Position numbers and translations under genes: made by a program. From Candidatus Aenigmatarchaeota archaeon (GTDB lineage: Archaea; Aenigmatarchaeota; Aenigmatarchaeia; CG10238-14; SCSR01): 64,000 nt of DNA. Below the pieces are notes generated by a model, which had not been told where the DNA came from, did not search any database, and saw only the letters and a program-made list of their open reading frames with translations. Positions 131 through 33,406 of this stretch are shown here, piece after piece; the stretch's first letter is position 1, and each line of letters opens with the position of its first letter. The stretch is taken from the NCBI GenBank assembly GCA_039000165.1, contig JAWBTW010000001.1, positions 13,179-77,178 on the forward strand, written 5' to 3'.

Positions 131-2173
131 TTAATCTTTTTTGTTTATTTTTTCAATTTTTACATTACAATACTTAAAGGCAGGTATTTTTGAGACAGGA
201 TCTAAGATAGGACTTGTTAGCTCGTTAGCTCTTTTTTCTGAATAATGGTTGGGAATTGACAGCAATCCTTTTGTTACTCTACTGCTAACTTTAGCTTTAA
301 TTTCGAGCTTGCCAAAGGGAGAAGAAATTCTTATCATTTCTCCGTCTTTGATTTTAAGTTCTTCTGCATCCTCTTTGCTAATTTCGACATAAGCTTCTGA
401 CATAAGCTTATTTAAAGTATTAACTTTTCTTGTCATTACTCCAGTGTTAAAGTGTTCAAGCCATCGATGAGAAATTAAAACATAAGGATAAGCGTGGTCC
501 AAGCTTTGGGGTCCAACGTATGAAACAGGGTAGAAAACTGCTTTTTTTCCTGGATAACCAAAATCTTTTGTGTACAAGATTTTTGTTCCTTTTGGATTTT
601 TCTTATCGCATGGCCATTGTATACCTTTTCTTCCAAGTTTTTTGTAAGTTATTCTAGAATACTGAGGTACAGCTTTTCTTATTTCATTAAAAATCTCTTC
701 AGCTGAATTAAAGTTAAACTCATCTTTAAAGCCCATCCTTTCTGCCAAAAGCTTTATTATCATCCAGTCCTCTTTTGCCTCTCCCGGTGGATTAACTGCT
801 TTGTTGATTAGCTGAACCCTTCTTTCGCTATTTGTAAAAGTTCCGGTTTTTTCTAAGAAGTCTGCTGCAGGAAGAATTATGTTCGCAAGTTTTGCTGTTT
901 CTGTCATGAAAATATCCTGGACTACCAAAAATTCAAGGTTTTTTAAGTTTTCTTCAACTCTATTAGAGTTAGGTAGTGAAACTACTGGATTATTTCCAAT
1001 TATATACATTCCAAGAATTCTTTCTGGAATGGCTTCTATCATTTCATACTCTGTTAATCCCTTAGAAATAGGTAAACCTTTTACTCTCCAGATTTTTTCG
1101 AATTTCCTTATAGTTTCTTGGGTTAAGGAAGAATAACCAGGATAAACATTGGGTAGAGCTCCTACATCACAAGCTCCTTGAACATTATTACATCCTCTTA
1201 AAGGATTAATTCCTGATCCTGGCTTTCCAAAATTTCCAGTAAGCAAAACCAAATCTCCTATCGTCAATATATTTTCAACACCATTACTATGTTGAGTCAT
1301 TCCCATTCCAATCAGTACAGCAGCCCTCTTGGATTTAGCATAAAGCAAGGCTACTTCTCTTATAGTTTTCTCTTCAACACCAGTGATTCTGGAAATATAG
1401 CTGAGGTCAAACTTTTCTAGACTTCTTTTAAATTGCTCAAAGCCTAAAGTCCTTTCTTTAATGAACTTTTTGTTTTCCAACTTTTCTTCAATTATAACCT
1501 TCATCAATCCAGTAATAAAAAGTATGTCAGTGTTTGGGTTAATTCTAACAAAAATGTCAGCTTTCTCTGCAGTTTCTGTTTTTCTAACATCTATAACTAC
1601 AAGTTTTCCTCCATGCTTTTTCATCTCTAAAATTCTTTCAAAACCTATAGGTTGAGTGACAGCAGGGTTTACACCAAAAGCCAAAATACATTCAGCTTCT
1701 TTCAAATCTTCATAGCTGTTTGTCATGGCTGACTTTCCAAGAATTTCGTACAAGCCAGTCAGAGTAGAAGCATGACATAAGCGAGTACAATTGTCTACGT
1801 TGTTGGTGCCTATAACAACTCTGGCAAACTTTTGAATCAAATAATTCTCTTCATTGGTGCATTTGGTTGAGGAAAAAATCCCTATGGAGTTTTTTCCGTA
1901 AGTGTCTCTTATCCTGGTGAATTCTTCCGCTATTATATCTAAAGCTTTTCTCCAAGAAATTCTCTCAAACTTATCCCCTTTCCTTATCAAAGGATACTTT
2001 AATCTTTCTGGATGATTTGTCATTTCCAGTAAAGTTGCCCCTTTTATGCAAAGTCTCCCTTTACTAATGGGATGATTCTTTCGCGGAGCTATTTTAACTG
2101 CTTTACCTCCCTTGATTTCAACTTCTATTCCACAACCAACCCCGCAATAAGGGCAAACCGAGAAAACTTTCAT
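131..2173 (-). CDS. fdhA: Formate dehydrogenase alpha subunit (molybdopterin oxidoreductase, Cys-type)
   Basis: N-terminal CPYCGVGCG Fe-S motif and MopB-family motifs. Active-site motif NNVDNCTRLCHAS carries Cys where Sec-type FDHs have U. The likely start is MKVFSV at 2173; the longer six-frame ORF upstream overlaps mobA and looks spurious. Confidence 0.8.
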   Translation of the reverse strand: MKVFSVCPYCGVGCGIEVEIKGGKAVKIAPRKNHPISKGRLCIKGATLLEMTNHPERLKYPLIRKGDKFERISWRKALDIIAEEFTRIRDTYGKNSIGIFSSTKCTNEENYLIQKFARVVIGTNNVDNCTRLCHASTLTGLYEILGKSAMTNSYEDLKEAECILAFGVNPAVTQPIGFERILEMKKHGGKLVVIDVRKTETAEKADIFVRINPNTDILFITGLMKVIIEEKLENKKFIKERTLGFEQFKRSLEKFDLSYISRITGVEEKTIREVALLYAKSKRAAVLIGMGMTQHSNGVENILTIGDLVLLTGNFGKPGSGINPLRGCNNVQGACDVGALPNVYPGYSSLTQETIRKFEKIWRVKGLPISKGLTEYEMIEAIPERILGMYIIGNNPVVSLPNSNRVEENLKNLEFLVVQDIFMTETAKLANIILPAADFLEKTGTFTNSERRVQLINKAVNPPGEAKEDWMIIKLLAERMGFKDEFNFNSAEEIFNEIRKAVPQYSRITYKKLGRKGIQWPCDKKNPKGTKILYTKDFGYPGKKAVFYPVSYVGPQSLDHAYPYVLISHRWLEHFNTGVMTRKVNTLNKLMSEAYVEISKEDAEELKIKDGEMIRISSPFGKLEIKAKVSSRVTKGLLSIPNHYSEKRANELTSPILDPVSKIPAFKYCNVKIEKINKKD

Positions 2174-2210
2174 TAAATTTAAATTTACTCTTTTGTTTTT
2201 AAATTGATAT

Positions 2211-2783
2211 ATGGAAGTTAGTTGTTTGATCCTCGCCGGTGGGAAATCCTCAAGACTTAGAAACAAACCATTCCTTATCCTGAAGGGTAAACCTTTAGTA
2301 AGATATGTTTTTGATAACTTAAGAGAAATGTTTTCAGAAATAATTGTTGTTGTGAAAAGCGAAAAAGATAAAGAAAAAATGGAAGAGATAATTAAAAACT
2401 GTAAAGTAGTTGCTGATAAAAGCAAGATTTTTTCTCCTATGGCAGGAATAATTGCTGGAATAAAACATATAAAAAATAATTTTGTTTTTGTGGTAGCTTG
2501 TGATATGCCTTTTATTGAGAAAAAAACTGTAAGAGAACTAATTTCAAGAATCGACAAAAATGTGAATTGTGTGTGTTATGCTTATTCTCTGGATAAGTTC
2601 GAGCCCCTATGTGCGATTTATAAAAAAGAATTTCTACAGAAAATAGGTTTGGAAAATAGCTTGAATGAAGCTATAAGGAAAGAGAAAAATAAGGCTCTTG
2701 TACCCATAGTCAAGGAAACTTACGAATTCTTTAATGTAAATACCAAAAAGGATTTTGAGGTTGCGGAAAAGCTACTCTCCTGA
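2211..2783 (+). CDS. mobA: Molybdenum cofactor guanylyltransferase MobA
   Basis: N-terminal LILAGGKSSRL motif, about 190 aa, adjacent to fdhA. Confidence 0.7.
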   Translation: MEVSCLILAGGKSSRLRNKPFLILKGKPLVRYVFDNLREMFSEIIVVVKSEKDKEKMEEIIKNCKVVADKSKIFSPMAGIIAGIKHIKNNFVFVVACDMPFIEKKTVRELISRIDKNVNCVCYAYSLDKFEPLCAIYKKEFLQKIGLENSLNEAIRKEKNKALVPIVKETYEFFNVNTKKDFEVAEKLLS

Positions 2784-2984
2784 AAGGCTTGGTAGAATTC
2801 CTATTTTTTCTAAAAGAAACCATAAAGTCAATATTAAAAGAAGTATTGAAGCTACAAATATGCTTGAAGAAATTTGCAAGCCCTGGAAATAGCCCCTTAT
2901 TACTTCATAAACAAGGTAAAATACTATGATATCCCTTGCAAAAGAGCGAAAACCCATATAATTAATTATTCACTAATAAAAATT

Positions 2985-3664
2985 ATGAAAATAGTGATTG
3001 GTTTGGGAGGTTCCATTTTAACAAAAGAAATCACTTACGAAAATTTTAAGAAGTATGCAGATGTTTTAGTAAAATTGAAAGAGAAAGGTCATAGAGTGGT
3101 GGTGATTTGTGGCGGAGGTAAGACATGCAGAGAGTATCAAAAAATAGCCAAGCAGTCTAATGCTACAGCAACTTTAACTGATAGAATAGGAATTATAGCA
3201 ACAAGGCTTAACGCTTTGACTTTAATTTCGGTTTTGGGGAGCATGCCTTTCAAGATGTTGTTAAAAGTGTGGAAGAGTTAGAAAGTGTGCCAGAAGAGAA
3301 AATAGTTGTAGGTGCAGGAATATTCCCAGGTCATTCTACAGATTTTGATTCTGCAATATTTGCTGAAGCGGTAAGGGCTGATATTTTAATAAAAGCAACT
3401 AACATAGATGGGGTTTATACTTCTGACCCAACTCAAGATCCTAGCGCCAAGAAGCTTGAAAAATTAAGTTACGAGGAACTAGAAAAGATTTTGTTAAAGA
3501 ATAAGCAAGGACCAGGAGAGTACAAGCTTTTTGATTTGTCTGCTGCGAAGATAATAGCAAGGTCGAAAATAAGAACTATAATAGTTGACGGTAGTGATCC
3601 AGAAGAAATTTTAAGAGCAGTTGAAGGAAAGCATAAAGGAAGCGAAGTTTTAAGTTTAAGCTAA
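2985..3664 (+). CDS. pyrH: Uridylate (UMP) kinase, archaeal type. An apparent -1 frameshift in the GGGG run at 3236-3239 splits it into ORFs 2874-3281 and 3269-3664.
   Basis: MKIVIGLGGS N-terminus, GHSTD and NIDGVYTSDP motifs. Both halves align colinearly to archaeal PyrH, and adding one G to the G4 run restores a single frame (LISVLGEHAFQDVVKSVEEL...). Confidence 0.75.
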
Positions 3665-3681
3665 AAATAAATTATTAGAAA

Positions 3682-3766
3682 GCCCTGGTAGCTCAGTTGG
3701 TTAGAGCGCATAGCTAGCGTAAGCTTGGTAAGCATGAGGTCCCGGGTTCAAGTCCCGGCCAGGGCT
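3682..3766 (+). tRNA. tRNA-Thr (anticodon GGU) with an 11-nt intron at the non-canonical 29/30 position
   Basis: Acceptor GCCCTGG/CCAGGGC, D-arm GCTCAGTTGGTTAGAGC, T-arm CCGGGTTCAAGTCCCGG. No continuous anticodon hairpin exists; removing 3712-3722 gives a perfect CATGC-TTGGTAA-GCATG stem-loop. No encoded CCA. Confidence 0.65.
3712..3722 (+). other. Putative tRNA intron (agctagcgtaa) inside the anticodon stem of tRNA-Thr
   Basis: This is the only excision that yields a perfect 5-bp anticodon stem with a canonical UUNNNAA loop. Confidence 0.5.
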
Positions 3767-4301
3767 TTACCGCACAACCACAAAATTCTTTTAATTTCCT
3801 TGTCCATAATCAACCTCTTCGATTCTATAAAACCTAAACTTTACTTTGTTGTTTTCAAGAGCTTTAATCAAACTTTTAAGAAGCGTGAAGGAATCAACAA
3901 AAAAGCTTGCATATACTCTCTTTTCATAAAGCCAAACGTTCAACTTTTTAACGTAAATAAAAATGATTTCTGCTAATTTTTCCACACTAACCTTTTCGCA
4001 CTCAATTTTTGCTAGCAGCATTTTCATCAGCCCCTATTATTTCGTAGACTCTTCCCCTTTTCTCTCCAATAGCCCTAACAAAACCTTTTGAGCAGAGGTT
4101 TTAGTTTCTAAAAGCTGTTTTCCTCGCTTAAGATAACAGCAAGCCTGTAGTTGTAATAGACACAGGGACAATATCAGAGAGAGCGGAAAGCAGAGAAGCG
4201 ACAAGGAAAAGGAGATGAGGAAAAAGCTGTAGACACTATCTTATTGAAGCAGTTATACTATTGCCTGAAAAACCTTTTCTACAACACTCTCTCTTTTCCA
4301 T

Positions 4302-5887: not shown

Positions 5888-8163
5888 TATTCTTTCCTCC
5901 TCAAATCCTCTAAAATCCTTTTTTCAGTTTTTGCAACTATCTCTCTTACTCTTTTTATTGCATCAATGTTAACAGAAATGCTTGAAATTCCACACTCAAC
6001 CAAAAATTCGACCATTTCGGGTATATTGCTTGGAGCTTCTCCACAGATTGAACTTTCCACGTTATACTTGTTGCAGGTTTTTATCGTTTCTTTTATTAAC
6101 CTTAAAACAGCTGGATGCATTTCTGAGTAAAGATGAGATAACCTTGCATTATTTCTATCAACCCCCAATGTAAGCATGGTCAGATCATTTGAACCTATGG
6201 AAGCAAAGGCTATACCTTCTTTACAGAATTCTTCTATAGTTAAAGCACAAGAAGGTACTTCAACCATTATTCCAAGCTTACAACTTTTGGGTAGCCTTAC
6301 TTCTAAGGCAATTTCTTTTGCTCTTCTAAATTCGTCGACAGAAATTATAAAAGGTAGCATTACATGAACGTTATCTAAACCTTCTTCATGCAATCTTTTA
6401 ATTGCTTCAAACTCTGCTTTTAATATTTCTGGCTCGTCAAGGCTTCTTCTTATACCATGCCATCCAAGCATAGGGTTATCTTCTTTTGGTTCTTCTTCTC
6501 CACCTTCTAAATGCTTAAGCTCGTCAGTTCTTGCATCCAAAGTTCTTACCCACACAGGTTTGGGATAGAAAGCTTGAGCTATTGGTCTTATGCCGTTAAG
6601 AAGAATTTGAATGTATTCTTCTTCTCTCCCTTCTCTTACAAGTTTTGCAGGATGTTTTCCTGATTTGAGTATCATATGCTCTATCCTTAGCAAACCAACA
6701 CCGTCAACTTTTTTTACTATTTCTTCTATTCCTTCTGGAAAAGCAAGGTTGACTTTTATCTGAGTAATTGTTGGTTTTATTTCTTCTTCCTCTTCTTCTG
6801 GAGCTACTATTTCTGGTCTCTCTACCTCAATTATCCCAGGATAAATTAAGCCACGATAAGCGTCAACAGTAACTTCTTGTCCGTCCTTTAAAATTTTTGT
6901 TGCAGCTAAAGTTCCTACCACACAAGGAATTCTCATTTCTCTTGAAACTATTGCTGCATGACAAGTTTGTCCTCCAGAATCGGTTATTATAGCTGCACAC
7001 TTGCTCATAGTAGGAACCAGATCAGGAGAAGTCATTGTTGTAACTAAAATATCTCCCTTTTCAACTTTATCTATATCTTTTAGGTCTAAAACAATCTTAA
7101 CATTTCCTGAAGCTATTCCAGGCGAAACTCCTAGACCCTTAAGAATAGGTTCACCAACAACCTCCACTTTCTCAACTTTTCCTACAGTAGTTATCGCTCT
7201 TGTCTGAACTATATAAATTTTGTTTTTTTCTATAGCAAACTCGATATCTTGAGGCCTGCCGTAATGATTCTCCAAAATTACTCCATAATGAGCGAGTTTA
7301 GCTAATTCTTCTTCTGTTAAAATTTGTTTTCCTTTTTTATCTCTCGGAACAGGAATTTCTTCTGTTTTGTCAGTAGCCAAATCTCTTATACGCATAATTT
7401 CCTTAAGTCCGATTTTTTTGTCCAAAACTTTGCCATCTTTTGAGACTATATAAATATCCGGAGTAACTCTTCCAGAAACTAAAGTTTCACCCAAGCCCCA
7501 ACAAGCCTCTATAACTATATTGTCCTCGCCTGTAGCAGGATTTACAGTAAACATTACCCCAGCTTTTTCGCTGTTAACCATTTTTTGGACTACTACTGCG
7601 ATACTAGCATGCTTAAAACCTTGTTTAGCTCTGTAAAAAATTGCTCTAGGTTCGTATAAGCTTGCAAAACATTCCTTCACGCATTGTAATAACTCTTTAT
7701 GACCTTTAACGTTTAGGAAAGAAGCTTGTTGCCCGGCAAAGCTCGCAGTTGGTAAATCTTCTGCTGTTGCTGAACTTCTTACTGCAACTAATGCTAAATC
7801 TCTTCCTGACCTTACAATTTCTAGTTCTTTCCCTATATCGCTATAAGAAAGTGTTTCGTAAGCTTCTATGATTTCATTTTTAATAGTAGCTGGATATTCT
7901 TGAGAAACTATAATTTCTTTTATTTTTTGTGATGTCTCAAGGAGTTGGGTAGTGTTATCAACATCACATTCCCTTAAAAGATCATCTATTATTTCTTTTA
8001 TTTTGTTAATCTCTATGAACCTTTCAAAAGCTTTTGTCGTTACGACAAAACCAGGAGGAACAGGAAGACCAAGTTTTATCATTTCTCCTAAGTTTGCACC
8101 CTTCCCTCCAGCTATGTTTACAGAATCCTTAGAAAGTTCATCGAGCCACTTAACGTATTCCAT
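5887..8163 (-). CDS. ppsA: Phosphoenolpyruvate synthase (pyruvate, water dikinase)
   Basis: 758 aa with an ATP-grasp N-terminus (NIAGGKGANLGEM), a phosphohistidine domain and a PEP-utilising C-terminal domain. Confidence 0.85.
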   Translation of the reverse strand: MEYVKWLDELSKDSVNIAGGKGANLGEMIKLGLPVPPGFVVTTKAFERFIEINKIKEIIDDLLRECDVDNTTQLLETSQKIKEIIVSQEYPATIKNEIIEAYETLSYSDIGKELEIVRSGRDLALVAVRSSATAEDLPTASFAGQQASFLNVKGHKELLQCVKECFASLYEPRAIFYRAKQGFKHASIAVVVQKMVNSEKAGVMFTVNPATGEDNIVIEACWGLGETLVSGRVTPDIYIVSKDGKVLDKKIGLKEIMRIRDLATDKTEEIPVPRDKKGKQILTEEELAKLAHYGVILENHYGRPQDIEFAIEKNKIYIVQTRAITTVGKVEKVEVVGEPILKGLGVSPGIASGNVKIVLDLKDIDKVEKGDILVTTMTSPDLVPTMSKCAAIITDSGGQTCHAAIVSREMRIPCVVGTLAATKILKDGQEVTVDAYRGLIYPGIIEVERPEIVAPEEEEEEIKPTITQIKVNLAFPEGIEEIVKKVDGVGLLRIEHMILKSGKHPAKLVREGREEEYIQILLNGIRPIAQAFYPKPVWVRTLDARTDELKHLEGGEEEPKEDNPMLGWHGIRRSLDEPEILKAEFEAIKRLHEEGLDNVHVMLPFIISVDEFRRAKEIALEVRLPKSCKLGIMVEVPSCALTIEEFCKEGIAFASIGSNDLTMLTLGVDRNNARLSHLYSEMHPAVLRLIKETIKTCNKYNVESSICGEAPSNIPEMVEFLVECGISSISVNIDAIKRVREIVAKTEKRILEDLRRKE

Positions 8164-30218: not shown

Positions 30219-30276
30219 AATGAAATTTTAGAAAAAAAGCTTTTAAGATTATAGTAACTCAGATAACTAAGTTCAG

Positions 30277-30421
30277 CGCCGAGGCTGGGATTTGAACCCA
30301 GAAGGGGCAAAGCCCCACCAGCTTTCTCAACTCACCTCCGACTCATCATTAGTCAGAGTCAAGCCATTTTATCATTGAAAGACTCAAGGCTGGCGCGTTA
30401 GCCAGGTTCCGCCACCTCGGC
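30277..30421 (-). tRNA. tRNA-Ser (anticodon UGA) with a 59-nt intron at the canonical 37/38 position
   Basis: Acceptor GCCGAGG/CCUCGGC, G73 discriminator, 3-bp D-stem, long variable arm GGGGCUUUGCCCC, T-arm CUGGGUUCAAAUCCCAG. Anticodon stem CCAGC...GCUGG brackets CUUGAG+intron+A. Confidence 0.8.
30324..30382 (-). ncRNA. Intron of tRNA-Ser carrying a box C/D sRNA-like module (C AUGAUAA, D' CUGA, C' AUGAUGA, D UUGA)
   Basis: Spacing C-12nt-D'-3nt-C'-12nt-D, with 12-nt guide candidates AAUGGCUUGACU and GUCGGAGGUGAG. Internal boxes are canonical; terminal boxes are slightly degenerate. Confidence 0.55.
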
Positions 30422-30516
30422 TTCCTCATCTTTATTCAGACCTTGAGTCTAATTAAAATATGAGTTTTAATTTTAAAATATTAGAACTTAAAAATTAAAT
30501 TTATCAAATTAATTTT

Positions 30517-32418: not shown

Positions 32419-33406
32419 TTATTTGAAACTTGGATAAGTTCCAGGTTTTATGAAAACCTTATCAGTTTTTATTGCTATCCCTTTTTTCCTTTCAAACATT
32501 TCCTCGCTATTCAAAACAGCTTTTCCTAAGGCAACTAACTCTTCTTTCAAAGAATAAACAGCTACTATTTCATTTTTCTCTATTCCTTCTTGAATTCTTG
32601 TTAAGCCTGAGCAGAAAACTGGCGCTCCATGACAAATTGAATCGACAGCAGAATCTTTAACAAAAACTCTTTTTAAGTGCAAAACAGCAAACTCAACAGG
32701 AATCAAAATTTCTTTTAAAAATTTTTCATTTCCTTCTTTCCAAAATTCATAAGCATCCCTAATCTCCACTAAGGAATGAGCCTGCTCTTCAGTAAAATTT
32801 CCTGCTTTTGTCCTTCTTAGCTCAGTTAAATGAGCTCCTATTCCTAAGCTTAAGCCTAAATCGCTAACAAGCTTTCTTATATAAACTCCAGCTTGGCATC
32901 CAACTTTAAACAAAACATCCTTTCCTTCAATTTCCAAAATATCAAAAAAATAAACTTTTTTTTCTCTTGGTTTTCTTGCAACTGCACTTCTTACAGGCGG
33001 GACTTGAACTATTTTCCCAACAAACTTTTTTACTCCTTCTCTTAAAATTTCTTCATCAACTTGCTTGTGTAAGTGCATCACTCCTACGTATTCTTTATCT
33101 AAACCTAAAAGCACACTCATAGCTTTTGTTGCGTTATCTAAGGCTACAGGTAAAACTCCGGTCACGCCAGGATTTCCTCAAAGTTCTAAGGTCCCAGCAT
33201 GACCAGCCTTTTTTGCTTGAAATATTTCCTTTACCCACTGAGTTACTTGATGGCTTGTTGGTCCTGCATGCTTATCAACTATTATCACTGAATTTTTTAT
33301 TTGCTCTTCTATGCTTCTCTCGCTAGGTCTTTTACCATAACTTTCGTCAGTTTCTTCCTCTGCTTTAATCAGCCAGATTTTTTCACCCCCTTGACTTTAA
33401 GGCCAT
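32419..33406 (-). CDS. cbf5: tRNA/rRNA pseudouridine synthase Cbf5 (dyskerin homologue with PUA domain). Interrupted by a 12-nt insertion with in-frame TGA at 33173-33184 (putative mini-intron) and by a C5 homopolymer frameshift at 33386-33390 near the N-terminus.
   Basis: Colinear with archaeal Cbf5 from the N-terminus (MALKSRGEKIWLIK...VIIVDKHAGPTSH) through ...KAGHAGTL[ins]PGVTGVLPVALDNAT to the C-terminal PUA domain. Deleting 33173-33184 restores GTLDPGVTG. Confidence 0.8.
33173..33184 (-). other. Putative 12-nt BHB-type mini-intron in the cbf5 mRNA (ACUUUGAGGAAA), containing an in-frame UGA
   Basis: Deleting it converts GTL-EL*GN-PGVTG into the universally conserved catalytic GTLDPGVTG. 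The insertion is not at a homopolymer. Confidence 0.4.

Follow-up and report, generated by a model that had tools for sequence, protein, structure and literature searches.

The tRNA-Trp intron of archaea carries a box C/D small RNA (sRNA) that guides Cm34 and Um39, and reviews of 2021 and 2024 name tRNA-Trp alone as the host of an intronic C/D RNA (PMC7994747; PMC11408192). A C/D-like RNA is also known by RNA sequencing from a tRNA-Met intron of Nanoarchaeum equitans, a member of DPANN (PMC3491384), and in Pyrobaculum individual tRNAs have C/D guides directed at their U34 (PMC6009581). Here we analyze a 64-kb stretch of DNA, hereafter the window, from an archaeon described as a hot-spring organism, in which the tRNA-Ser(UGA) gene on the minus strand is interrupted by a 59-nucleotide (nt) intron with the full layout of a C/D sRNA, and is preceded by a short element complementary to its own anticodon loop. 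The preliminary description of this intron as a C/D module had treated pre-tRNA-Trp as the classical host and tRNA-Ser as an unusual one; the tRNA-Trp precedent stands, but it is not the sole one, given the N. equitans tRNA-Met case (PMC3491384). We find neither tRNA-Ser as an intronic C/D host nor a leader-encoded half guide in the literature that we covered, which is incomplete.

Our comparison of related loci supports the reading that this intron contains a genuine archaeal box C/D sRNA gene, nested in a splicing-endonuclease intron at a site where relatives have a mini-intron of 11-14 nt, and we consider it probable that the intron acts as a working C/D sRNA. The case for tRNA-Ser as a host draws on conservation across species and not on one sequence. 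tRNA-Ser would then be the third known host of an intron-borne guide RNA, after tRNA-Trp and tentatively one tRNA-Met, and would place such a host in the little-studied phylum Aenigmatarchaeota.

The tRNA-Ser(UGA) intron has the layout of a box C/D sRNA

The archaeal box C/D consensus has the order C (RUGAUGA), D' (CUGA), C' (UGAUGA), D (CUGA). Read 5' to 3', the intron consists of UCUUUCA, AUGAUAA, AAUGGCUUGACU, CUGA, CUA, AUGAUGA, GUCGGAGGUGAG, UUGA and GAA, identical to the earlier reading of a C box, a 12-nt guide, D', a 3-nt spacer, C', a second 12-nt guide and D. The gene and the parts of its intron are as follows (K-loop, kink-loop).

30277..30421, minus strand: intron-containing tRNA-Ser(UGA) gene (ARAGORN with introns allowed; Rfam tRNA model)
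30383-30421, minus strand: tRNA-Ser(UGA) 5' exon
30277-30323, minus strand: tRNA-Ser(UGA) 3' exon
30324..30382, minus strand: 59-nt intron at position 37/38 with full C/D sRNA layout (ARAGORN, pattern search, Rfam alignment)
30369..30375, minus strand: C box AUGAUAA; in orthologues, position 5 is U, G or A and position 6 is always A
30357..30368, minus strand: D' guide AAUGGCUUGACU, 12 nt; invariant in orthologues but for the box-distal base (A or C)
30353..30356, minus strand: D' box CUGA; invariant in all orthologues
30350..30352, minus strand: D'-C' spacer CUA, loop of the putative K-loop; CUA, UUA, UUU or UUC in orthologues
30343..30349, minus strand: C' box AUGAUGA; invariant
30331..30342, minus strand: D guide GUCGGAGGUGAG, 12 nt; invariant in orthologues but for the box-proximal base (G or A)
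30327..30330, minus strand: D box UUGA, also the predicted 3' strand of the splicing (bulge-helix-loop) helix, where it pairs with U33-A36; invariant

ARAGORN with introns allowed agrees with the preliminary description on the identity of the tRNA, the strand, and the length and 37/38 position of the intron. Removal of the intron leaves an 86-nt product with a class II tRNA-Ser fold and a normal cloverleaf. The exons are 66% G+C, compared to 34% for the window, and the Rfam tRNA model scores 42.3 bits over 30277-30421 with a 62-nt insertion in a small-region search; the gene is missed by ARAGORN without the intron option and by Rfam at its gathering threshold.

The internal boxes of the intron (CUGA and AUGAUGA) are perfect, with one deviation in each of the terminal boxes (AUGAUAA and UUGA). 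A strict and two relaxed C/D patterns each find this intron as their single match on both strands of the window, while 100 shuffles give 0, 0 and 0.03 matches per shuffle, respectively. The generic Pyrococcus C/D model of Rfam, snoPyro_CD, aligns with the intron over the full length of the model (positions 1-58 of 58), and the alignment takes in a terminal stem of 3 bp, UUC/GAA.

Boxes and guides are conserved while linkers vary

Related loci were obtained by scanning one genome per species with the last 23 nt of the tRNA, which yields 83 loci, mostly from DPANN (L numbers below), and intron orthologues were found by ARAGORN on these loci and by reading of the sequences. The same intron, 58-59 nt or longer, is present in L002, L034, L045, L058, L075 and L070, and partially in L007, where the copy ends at a contig edge. 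L002 is a strain variant of the window, and the tRNA region of L058 (the 802-kb scaffold JAVZHQ010000001.1, isolate DRTY-6_201808_bins_93) is identical to it. The named intron-bearing relatives are Aenigmatarchaeota metagenome-assembled genomes, with L045 labelled only 'uncultured archaeon'; the homologues of a neighboring gene product and the DNA matches likewise carry the label Candidatus Aenigmatarchaeota. Fully identical copies of this gene product are encoded on contigs of metagenome-assembled genomes at NCBI.

Five further distinct orthologous introns share all four boxes, the spacings and both guides with the window, and the spacings are 12, 3 and 12 nt in every orthologue. Three of the 46 columns in boxes and guides vary, compared to six of 13 in the linkers (Fisher p = 0.002); for the guides alone versus the linkers, p = 0.013. 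The 5' flanks of the C/D-bearing introns read UCUUUCA, UCUUAGA, UCUUCA or UCUUUUCG, the L070 intron has an 8-nt insertion in its 3' flank, and upstream of the gene, beyond the flank element described below, the window and L045 are unalignable. Boxes and guides that are kept while linkers vary are the pattern expected of a working guide RNA. An alignment of related tRNA-Ser introns had been named at the outset as a check on the C/D reading, and the boxes are kept in five other distinct Aenigmatarchaeota sequences; the conserved boxes, 12-nt spacings and guides thus support the module as it was first read.

Three further features of these sequences are recorded here. In L002 (about 2555-2557), UCUUAGA replaces UCUUUCA, with loss of the UUC/GAA terminal stem in an otherwise identical intron. 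The stretch GCUUGACUCU, formed by the 3' part of the D' guide and the first bases of the D' box, matches the anticodon-loop/intron junction (CCUUGAGUCU) at 8 of 10 positions (30353-30366 versus 30378-30391, minus strand), and the D guide resembles the tRNA 5' end (GCCGAGGUGGCG); duplication, or a common pairing partner, could lie behind these likenesses.

The D box coincides with a strand of the splicing helix

In a C/D kink-turn (K-turn), position 6 of the C box pairs with position 1 of the D box, normally as G-C. We find A at C-box position 6 and U at D-box position 1 in every orthologue, while C-box position 5, opposite D-box U2, is U, G or A, and the GA dinucleotides are retained in all four boxes. 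The terminal boxes can thus pair through an A-U that replaces the G-C of K-turn stem II, and by sequence the boxes appear able to form a K-turn and a K-loop. The preliminary description had called the terminal boxes slightly degenerate; each does deviate at one position, but the A6-U1 pair makes these deviations compensated and not merely degenerate.

The short introns of relatives point to a reason for the unusual U. L220 is syntenic with the window (Cbf5, Trm112-like, OB-fold protein, tRNA-Ser, CxxCxxCC protein), with a neighboring protein 72% identical to that of the window, and has an intron of 11 nt, UCUUUUGAGAA, which corresponds to the window intron minus its central 48 nt. L063 has a 14-nt intron at the same 37/38 site, also without the C/D core. 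In the predicted fold of the L220 intron, the anticodon stem is followed by a bulge of 3 nt (AA|A), a helix of 5 bp between CUUGA (C32-A36) and UUGAG, and a loop; the 3' splice site lies in the bulge and the 5' splice site in the loop. The long intron retains both strands of this helix (C32-A36 and UUGAG), but has a different minimum-energy fold. On this model, both splice sites lie in a bulge-helix-loop, as in canonical endonuclease-spliced tRNA introns, and the D box UUGA of the long intron is predicted to be the 3' strand of the splicing helix, which would account for U at D-box position 1 because U1 pairs with A36. As one strand would serve both structures, the K-turn and the splicing fold would be mutually exclusive. 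Since the short introns lack the core, the C/D core appears as a clean insertion into, or deletion from, a pre-existing mini-intron.

Two relatives have an extra intron of ~17-20 nt between positions 30 and 31, in the anticodon stem, beside the one at 37/38: AUAGAUGAAAUCUAGGUGAA in L070 (about 280-300) and AUAGAAAAUUAGGCGAA in L063 (about 6855-6872). ARAGORN mislabels the former gene as tRNA-Thr and the latter as tRNA-Arg.

A candidate half guide for U34 precedes the tRNA gene

The 5' flank of the gene, beyond the coordinates first described, contains an element with a guide-like stretch and two boxes of its own, which the preliminary description had missed.

30440..30451, minus strand: upstream guide UAGACUCAAGGU, complementary to G30-G37 plus intron bases 1-3, with U34 opposite the fifth base upstream of CUGA
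30436..30439, minus strand: D-type box CUGA; CUGA in the window, L075, L045, L063, L220 and L009, AUGA in L033, decayed in L034 and L070
30423..30435, minus strand: loop AUAAAG (6 nt), then the C-type box AUGAGGA, separated from tRNA G1 by one base; K-loop-like D-loop-C arrangement

The upstream guide makes 10 Watson-Crick pairs and one G-U pair with the anticodon loop and the start of the intron, a match that a random 12-mer of window composition reaches in that register with p = 7.5e-6. Among 115 testable tRNAs (117 predicted), complementarity between flank and anticodon is genuine in tRNA-Ser(UGA) only; two other matches are a neighboring tRNA's anticodon arm and a low-complexity false call. 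A scan of viral contigs for the element returns 119 chance matches, none of them next to tRNA-Ser.

The element is present with the C/D intron (L075, L045), with the short introns (L220, L063), with a 13-nt intron in a tRNA of a different sequence type (L009), and in L033, which has no intron; it is decayed in L034 and L070. The C-type box reads AUGAUGA in L045, L063, L070 and L009, AUGAAGA in L075 and L220, and AUGAUUG in L033, at a distance of 4-7 nt from CUGA, and L033 pairs its AUGA D box with AUGAUUG, which would keep the stem II pair as U-A instead of G-C. U34 lies at the fifth position upstream of the box in every copy in which the box is intact. Guide and tRNA covary: in L009 and L033, tRNA position 31 is G for C and the guide has C for G, and in L033, G37 is followed by exon A38 instead of an intron U and the guide has U instead of A. 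Over the small alignment, 86.5% of cells are paired, whereas slid controls reach 52% or less, and both partners are substituted in three of the pairs.

No copy has a C box 12 nt upstream of the flank guide or a D box 12 nt after the C-type box. Since this second K-turn motif is missing, the element is a half unit and not a standard double-motif sRNA, and a complete C/D sRNA upstream of the tRNA was rejected for want of the terminal C and D boxes. Whether the half unit is a working guide for U34 we judge, from its pairing and covariation, to be a close call that falls just short of even.

The same flank contains a copy of the tRNA 5' acceptor strand, GCCGAG(GG), just upstream of the flank guide in three lineages (L009, about 2215-2222; L070, about 204-212; L033, about 3016-3021) and not in the window, and GCCGAGG...CCTCGGC hairpins lie upstream of tRNA-Ser genes in L010 and L019. 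On the other side of the gene, CUGA at 30273-30276 (minus strand) comes immediately after the discriminator base, an arrangement confined to the clade of the window; this 3' trailer motif was considered as a D box and rejected, as it is not conserved in other orthologues.

Guide targets and alternative explanations

Several results weigh against a working guide RNA in the intron. The preliminary description had suggested rRNA or other tRNAs as probable targets; a C/D guide should match a stable RNA over at least 9-10 bp, with the modified base facing the fifth position upstream of D or D'. Neither guide pairs with the exons, leader or trailer of the host tRNA, in accord with the earlier finding that neither is complementary to the tRNA-Ser exons, and neither the window nor 625 kb of related loci nor the 117 tRNAs of these DPANN loci yield complements beyond chance: the perfect complements in the window and the 625 kb are the antisense strand of the intron itself and nothing else, and the tRNAs give only 8-bp or G-U-rich duplexes at chance level. 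There are no rRNA genes in the window or in any fetched locus, and E. coli rRNA and a haloarchaeal rRNA operon from a plasmid record were used as stand-ins. The D' guide forms 10 bp with E. coli 16S helix 34, a candidate that was rejected after a metagenome scan, in which the seven 16S genes that had GTCAAGCCAT correctly spaced from the 1392 site were all bacterial; the D guide forms 11 pairs, two of them G-U, near position 850 of E. coli 23S, also rejected, as this segment differs in haloarchaeal 23S. The snoPyro_CD score of 21.9 bits is below the gathering score of 45, which says little on C/D class because the Rfam C/D families are lineage- and guide-specific. Patterns and Rfam detect no other C/D sRNA in the window; a match to SCARNA7, a C/D-type family, at 3885-4026 (minus strand; 28.8 bits versus a threshold of 65) was set aside as probably spurious, as it lies in an apparent coding region next to tRNA-Leu. 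The window has no gene for L7Ae, Nop5 or fibrillarin, and C/D protein genes are absent from the related loci as well; fibrillarin is present in >90% of archaeal taxa surveyed (PMC8481954). The two guides also pair with one another, CUCUGACU with AGUCGGAG, in a stem of 8 bp that joins the D' side to the D-guide side (window 30331-30366, minus strand), with a weaker 5-bp extension (GGCUU/GAGUU) and the C' box in the loop. Two of the few orthologue substitutions preserve this hairpin, so that part of the guide conservation may be structural and not target-driven.

If the module were a mobile or fossil insertion with orphan guides, it would fold and might bind L7Ae while guiding nothing, and would persist as harmless to splicing. 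The lack of targets in the sequences searched and the presence/absence polymorphism at one intron site both fit such an origin, and archaea are known to have both orphan guides and mobile C/D genes (PMC7994747, PMC3491384). We find this improbable, since a neutral insert should have drifted, whereas both guides are near-invariant across lineages in which the neighboring protein is only ~73% identical, and are kept even in L070, whose tRNA has diverged, while linkers and flanks change. The hairpin itself could be the conserved feature, presenting the splice sites, with the box-like motifs incidental: the pre-tRNA fold has z = -3.5 with its 8-bp stem, and the spacer C-to-U and D-guide-end G-to-A changes both preserve hairpin pairs. 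Four boxes at exact canonical spacings, a layout found in none of the shuffles, are not expected from a hairpin, however; the C box and most of the D' guide are conserved yet lie outside the stable stem, and relatives splice introns of 11-14 nt that have no hairpin, and we regard this alternative as very unlikely. A third possibility is that the intron ribonucleoprotein acts as an antisense chaperone, for example with the D guide on the 16S 3' end and anti-Shine-Dalgarno sequence during pre-rRNA maturation, in which case the 16S 3' end and trailer should read UCACCUCCGAC or similar. The D guide contains GGAGGUGA, the perfect 8-nt complement of UCACCUCC in the conserved 16S 3' end, and forms 8+2 bp with the haloarchaeal 16S 3' end and trailer; genes of the window use GGUGA-type ribosome-binding sites, from which the host 16S end should carry UCACCUCC, and chaperone roles have been proposed for archaeal C/D sRNAs (PMC7994747). 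An 8-nt match in ~4.5 kb of rRNA is, by our estimate, expected by chance about one time in three, and no partner is known for three other conserved bases of the guide (GUC); we rate a chaperone role a little below the orphan insertion.

For the upstream element, the competing explanation is a promoter-proximal motif acting at the level of DNA, or a remnant of a duplication. Two TATA-like boxes lie upstream; a transcript from one would take in the flank guide, and a transcript from the other would lack it. The second of these boxes, directly upstream of the guide, could put the transcription start downstream of the guide, which counts against a guide function. A TATA-like box abuts the element in the window, L075 and L034, the copies in L034 and L070 have decayed while the tRNA is kept, and the acceptor-strand copy GCCGAGG(G) stands upstream of the element in L009, L033 and L070. 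Against a DNA motif or remnant stand the coordinated changes of guide and tRNA, at tRNA position 31 and at the base that follows G37, and D and C boxes at K-loop spacing, including the compensated U-A variant of L033; the exact fifth-position register on U34 in every functional-looking copy and the unalignable remainder of the flank also speak for an RNA guide. We therefore regard the promoter or remnant explanation as unlikely, while giving it appreciably more weight than any of the alternatives for the intron.

A model for a self-modifying pre-tRNA

From the known tRNA-Trp system and C/D biology, we infer the following order of events. The leader K-loop, if transcribed with the tRNA, would be bound first, and pairing of the flank half guide with the anticodon loop, over the exon-intron junction, would lead to methylation of the wobble U34 before splicing, while the intron is still in place. 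The pre-tRNA would then adopt either the bulge-helix-loop for splicing, in which the D box is tied up, or the C/D K-turn. The endonuclease would cut out the 59-mer, which the tRNA ligase would probably circularize; L7Ae, Nop5 and fibrillarin would assemble on the C/D K-turn and the C'/D' K-loop, and the two conserved 12-nt guides would direct 2'-O-methylation, in trans, of two conserved RNAs and not of the host tRNA.

As pairing spans the exon-intron junction, the half guide would work only with the intron present. We tentatively propose, as an idea that is possible but that we hold less firmly than the half guide itself, that pre-tRNA-Ser(UGA) is self-modifying: the leader K-loop half guide would recruit C/D proteins to U34 only while the intron is present, which would give the mini-intron a function, and in one sublineage a full C/D sRNA would have colonized the mini-intron, borrowing a strand of the splicing helix as its D box. 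The locus would then be a case of guide RNAs caught in the act of entering tRNA introns. Since relatives keep the 11-14-nt intron and the predicted D box is the old splicing-helix strand, the locus illustrates a way for C/D modules to become established in tRNA introns. The upstream half guide, if real, would be a minimal guide in cis that links 5' leader processing, wobble methylation and the order of splicing, and would explain why a tiny intron is retained.

Genomic context

In a relative, L219, the gene for the CxxCxxCC protein is adjoined by a reverse gyrase with helicase and topoisomerase domains (918-3763), which, together with a G+C-rich tRNA in an A+T-rich genome, suggests a thermophilic clade. 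The open reading frame for the pseudouridine synthase Cbf5 (32419-33165, minus strand) encodes 248 amino acids in the window and in L001, and 314 in L220 (78-1022), where an N-terminal DKCLD domain is present; the difference may reflect a start-codon issue or a truncation. Contigs of several independent assemblies end inside or at the 3' end of the tRNA-Ser gene (L003, L004, L005, L006, L007/L011), likely because the 3' half is common to several tRNA-Ser genes per genome or because the samples contain mixed intron variants.

Comparison with known systems

The intron module belongs to a known kind; what would be new is the combination of a host-directed guide in the leader, a trans-acting sRNA in the intron, and a D box held in common with the splicing helix. 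As in the pre-tRNA-Trp intron of Haloferax volcanii and Pyrococcus (sR50), a complete C/D guide RNA lies inside a 37/38 tRNA intron, guide-competent and splicing-competent folds would compete, and each system, taken as a whole, has the host wobble position among its methylation targets, here as a prediction. The host here is tRNA-Ser(UGA), in DPANN instead of Euryarchaeota; the intron guides are unmatched to the host exons, the candidate host-directed guide is in the 5' flank, and the D box overlaps the predicted splicing helix. The 66-nt intron of the N. equitans elongator tRNA-Met (PMC3491384) shares with ours a DPANN origin, a host other than tRNA-Trp, a degenerate box and an internal hairpin. 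The RNA of that intron is stable; only C and D boxes are described there, compared to four boxes at canonical 12-nt spacings here, and conservation across species is observed here, in a different host tRNA.

Free-standing wobble guides include sR27 (U34 of tRNA-Gln) and sR46 (U34 of tRNA-Thr) of Pyrobaculum and the Pyrococcus guides for tRNA-Leu and tRNA-Met. Like these, the upstream element is complementary to a unique stretch about position 34, in keeping with the fifth-base rule; unlike these, which are full double-motif sRNAs encoded elsewhere, it is a half unit (guide, D, loop, C) that abuts its own putative target gene and pairs across the exon-intron junction. Dicistronic tRNA-C/D sRNA genes, such as tRNA-Val/sRNA8 of N. 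equitans, tRNA-Ser of Ignicoccus, tRNA-Met/sR44 of Pyrobaculum and those of plants, likewise link a C/D element to a tRNA gene, from which it is probably freed by tRNA end processing. The known cases are complete sRNAs that lie downstream of the tRNA, whereas the element described here is an upstream half unit predicted to target the adjacent tRNA itself.

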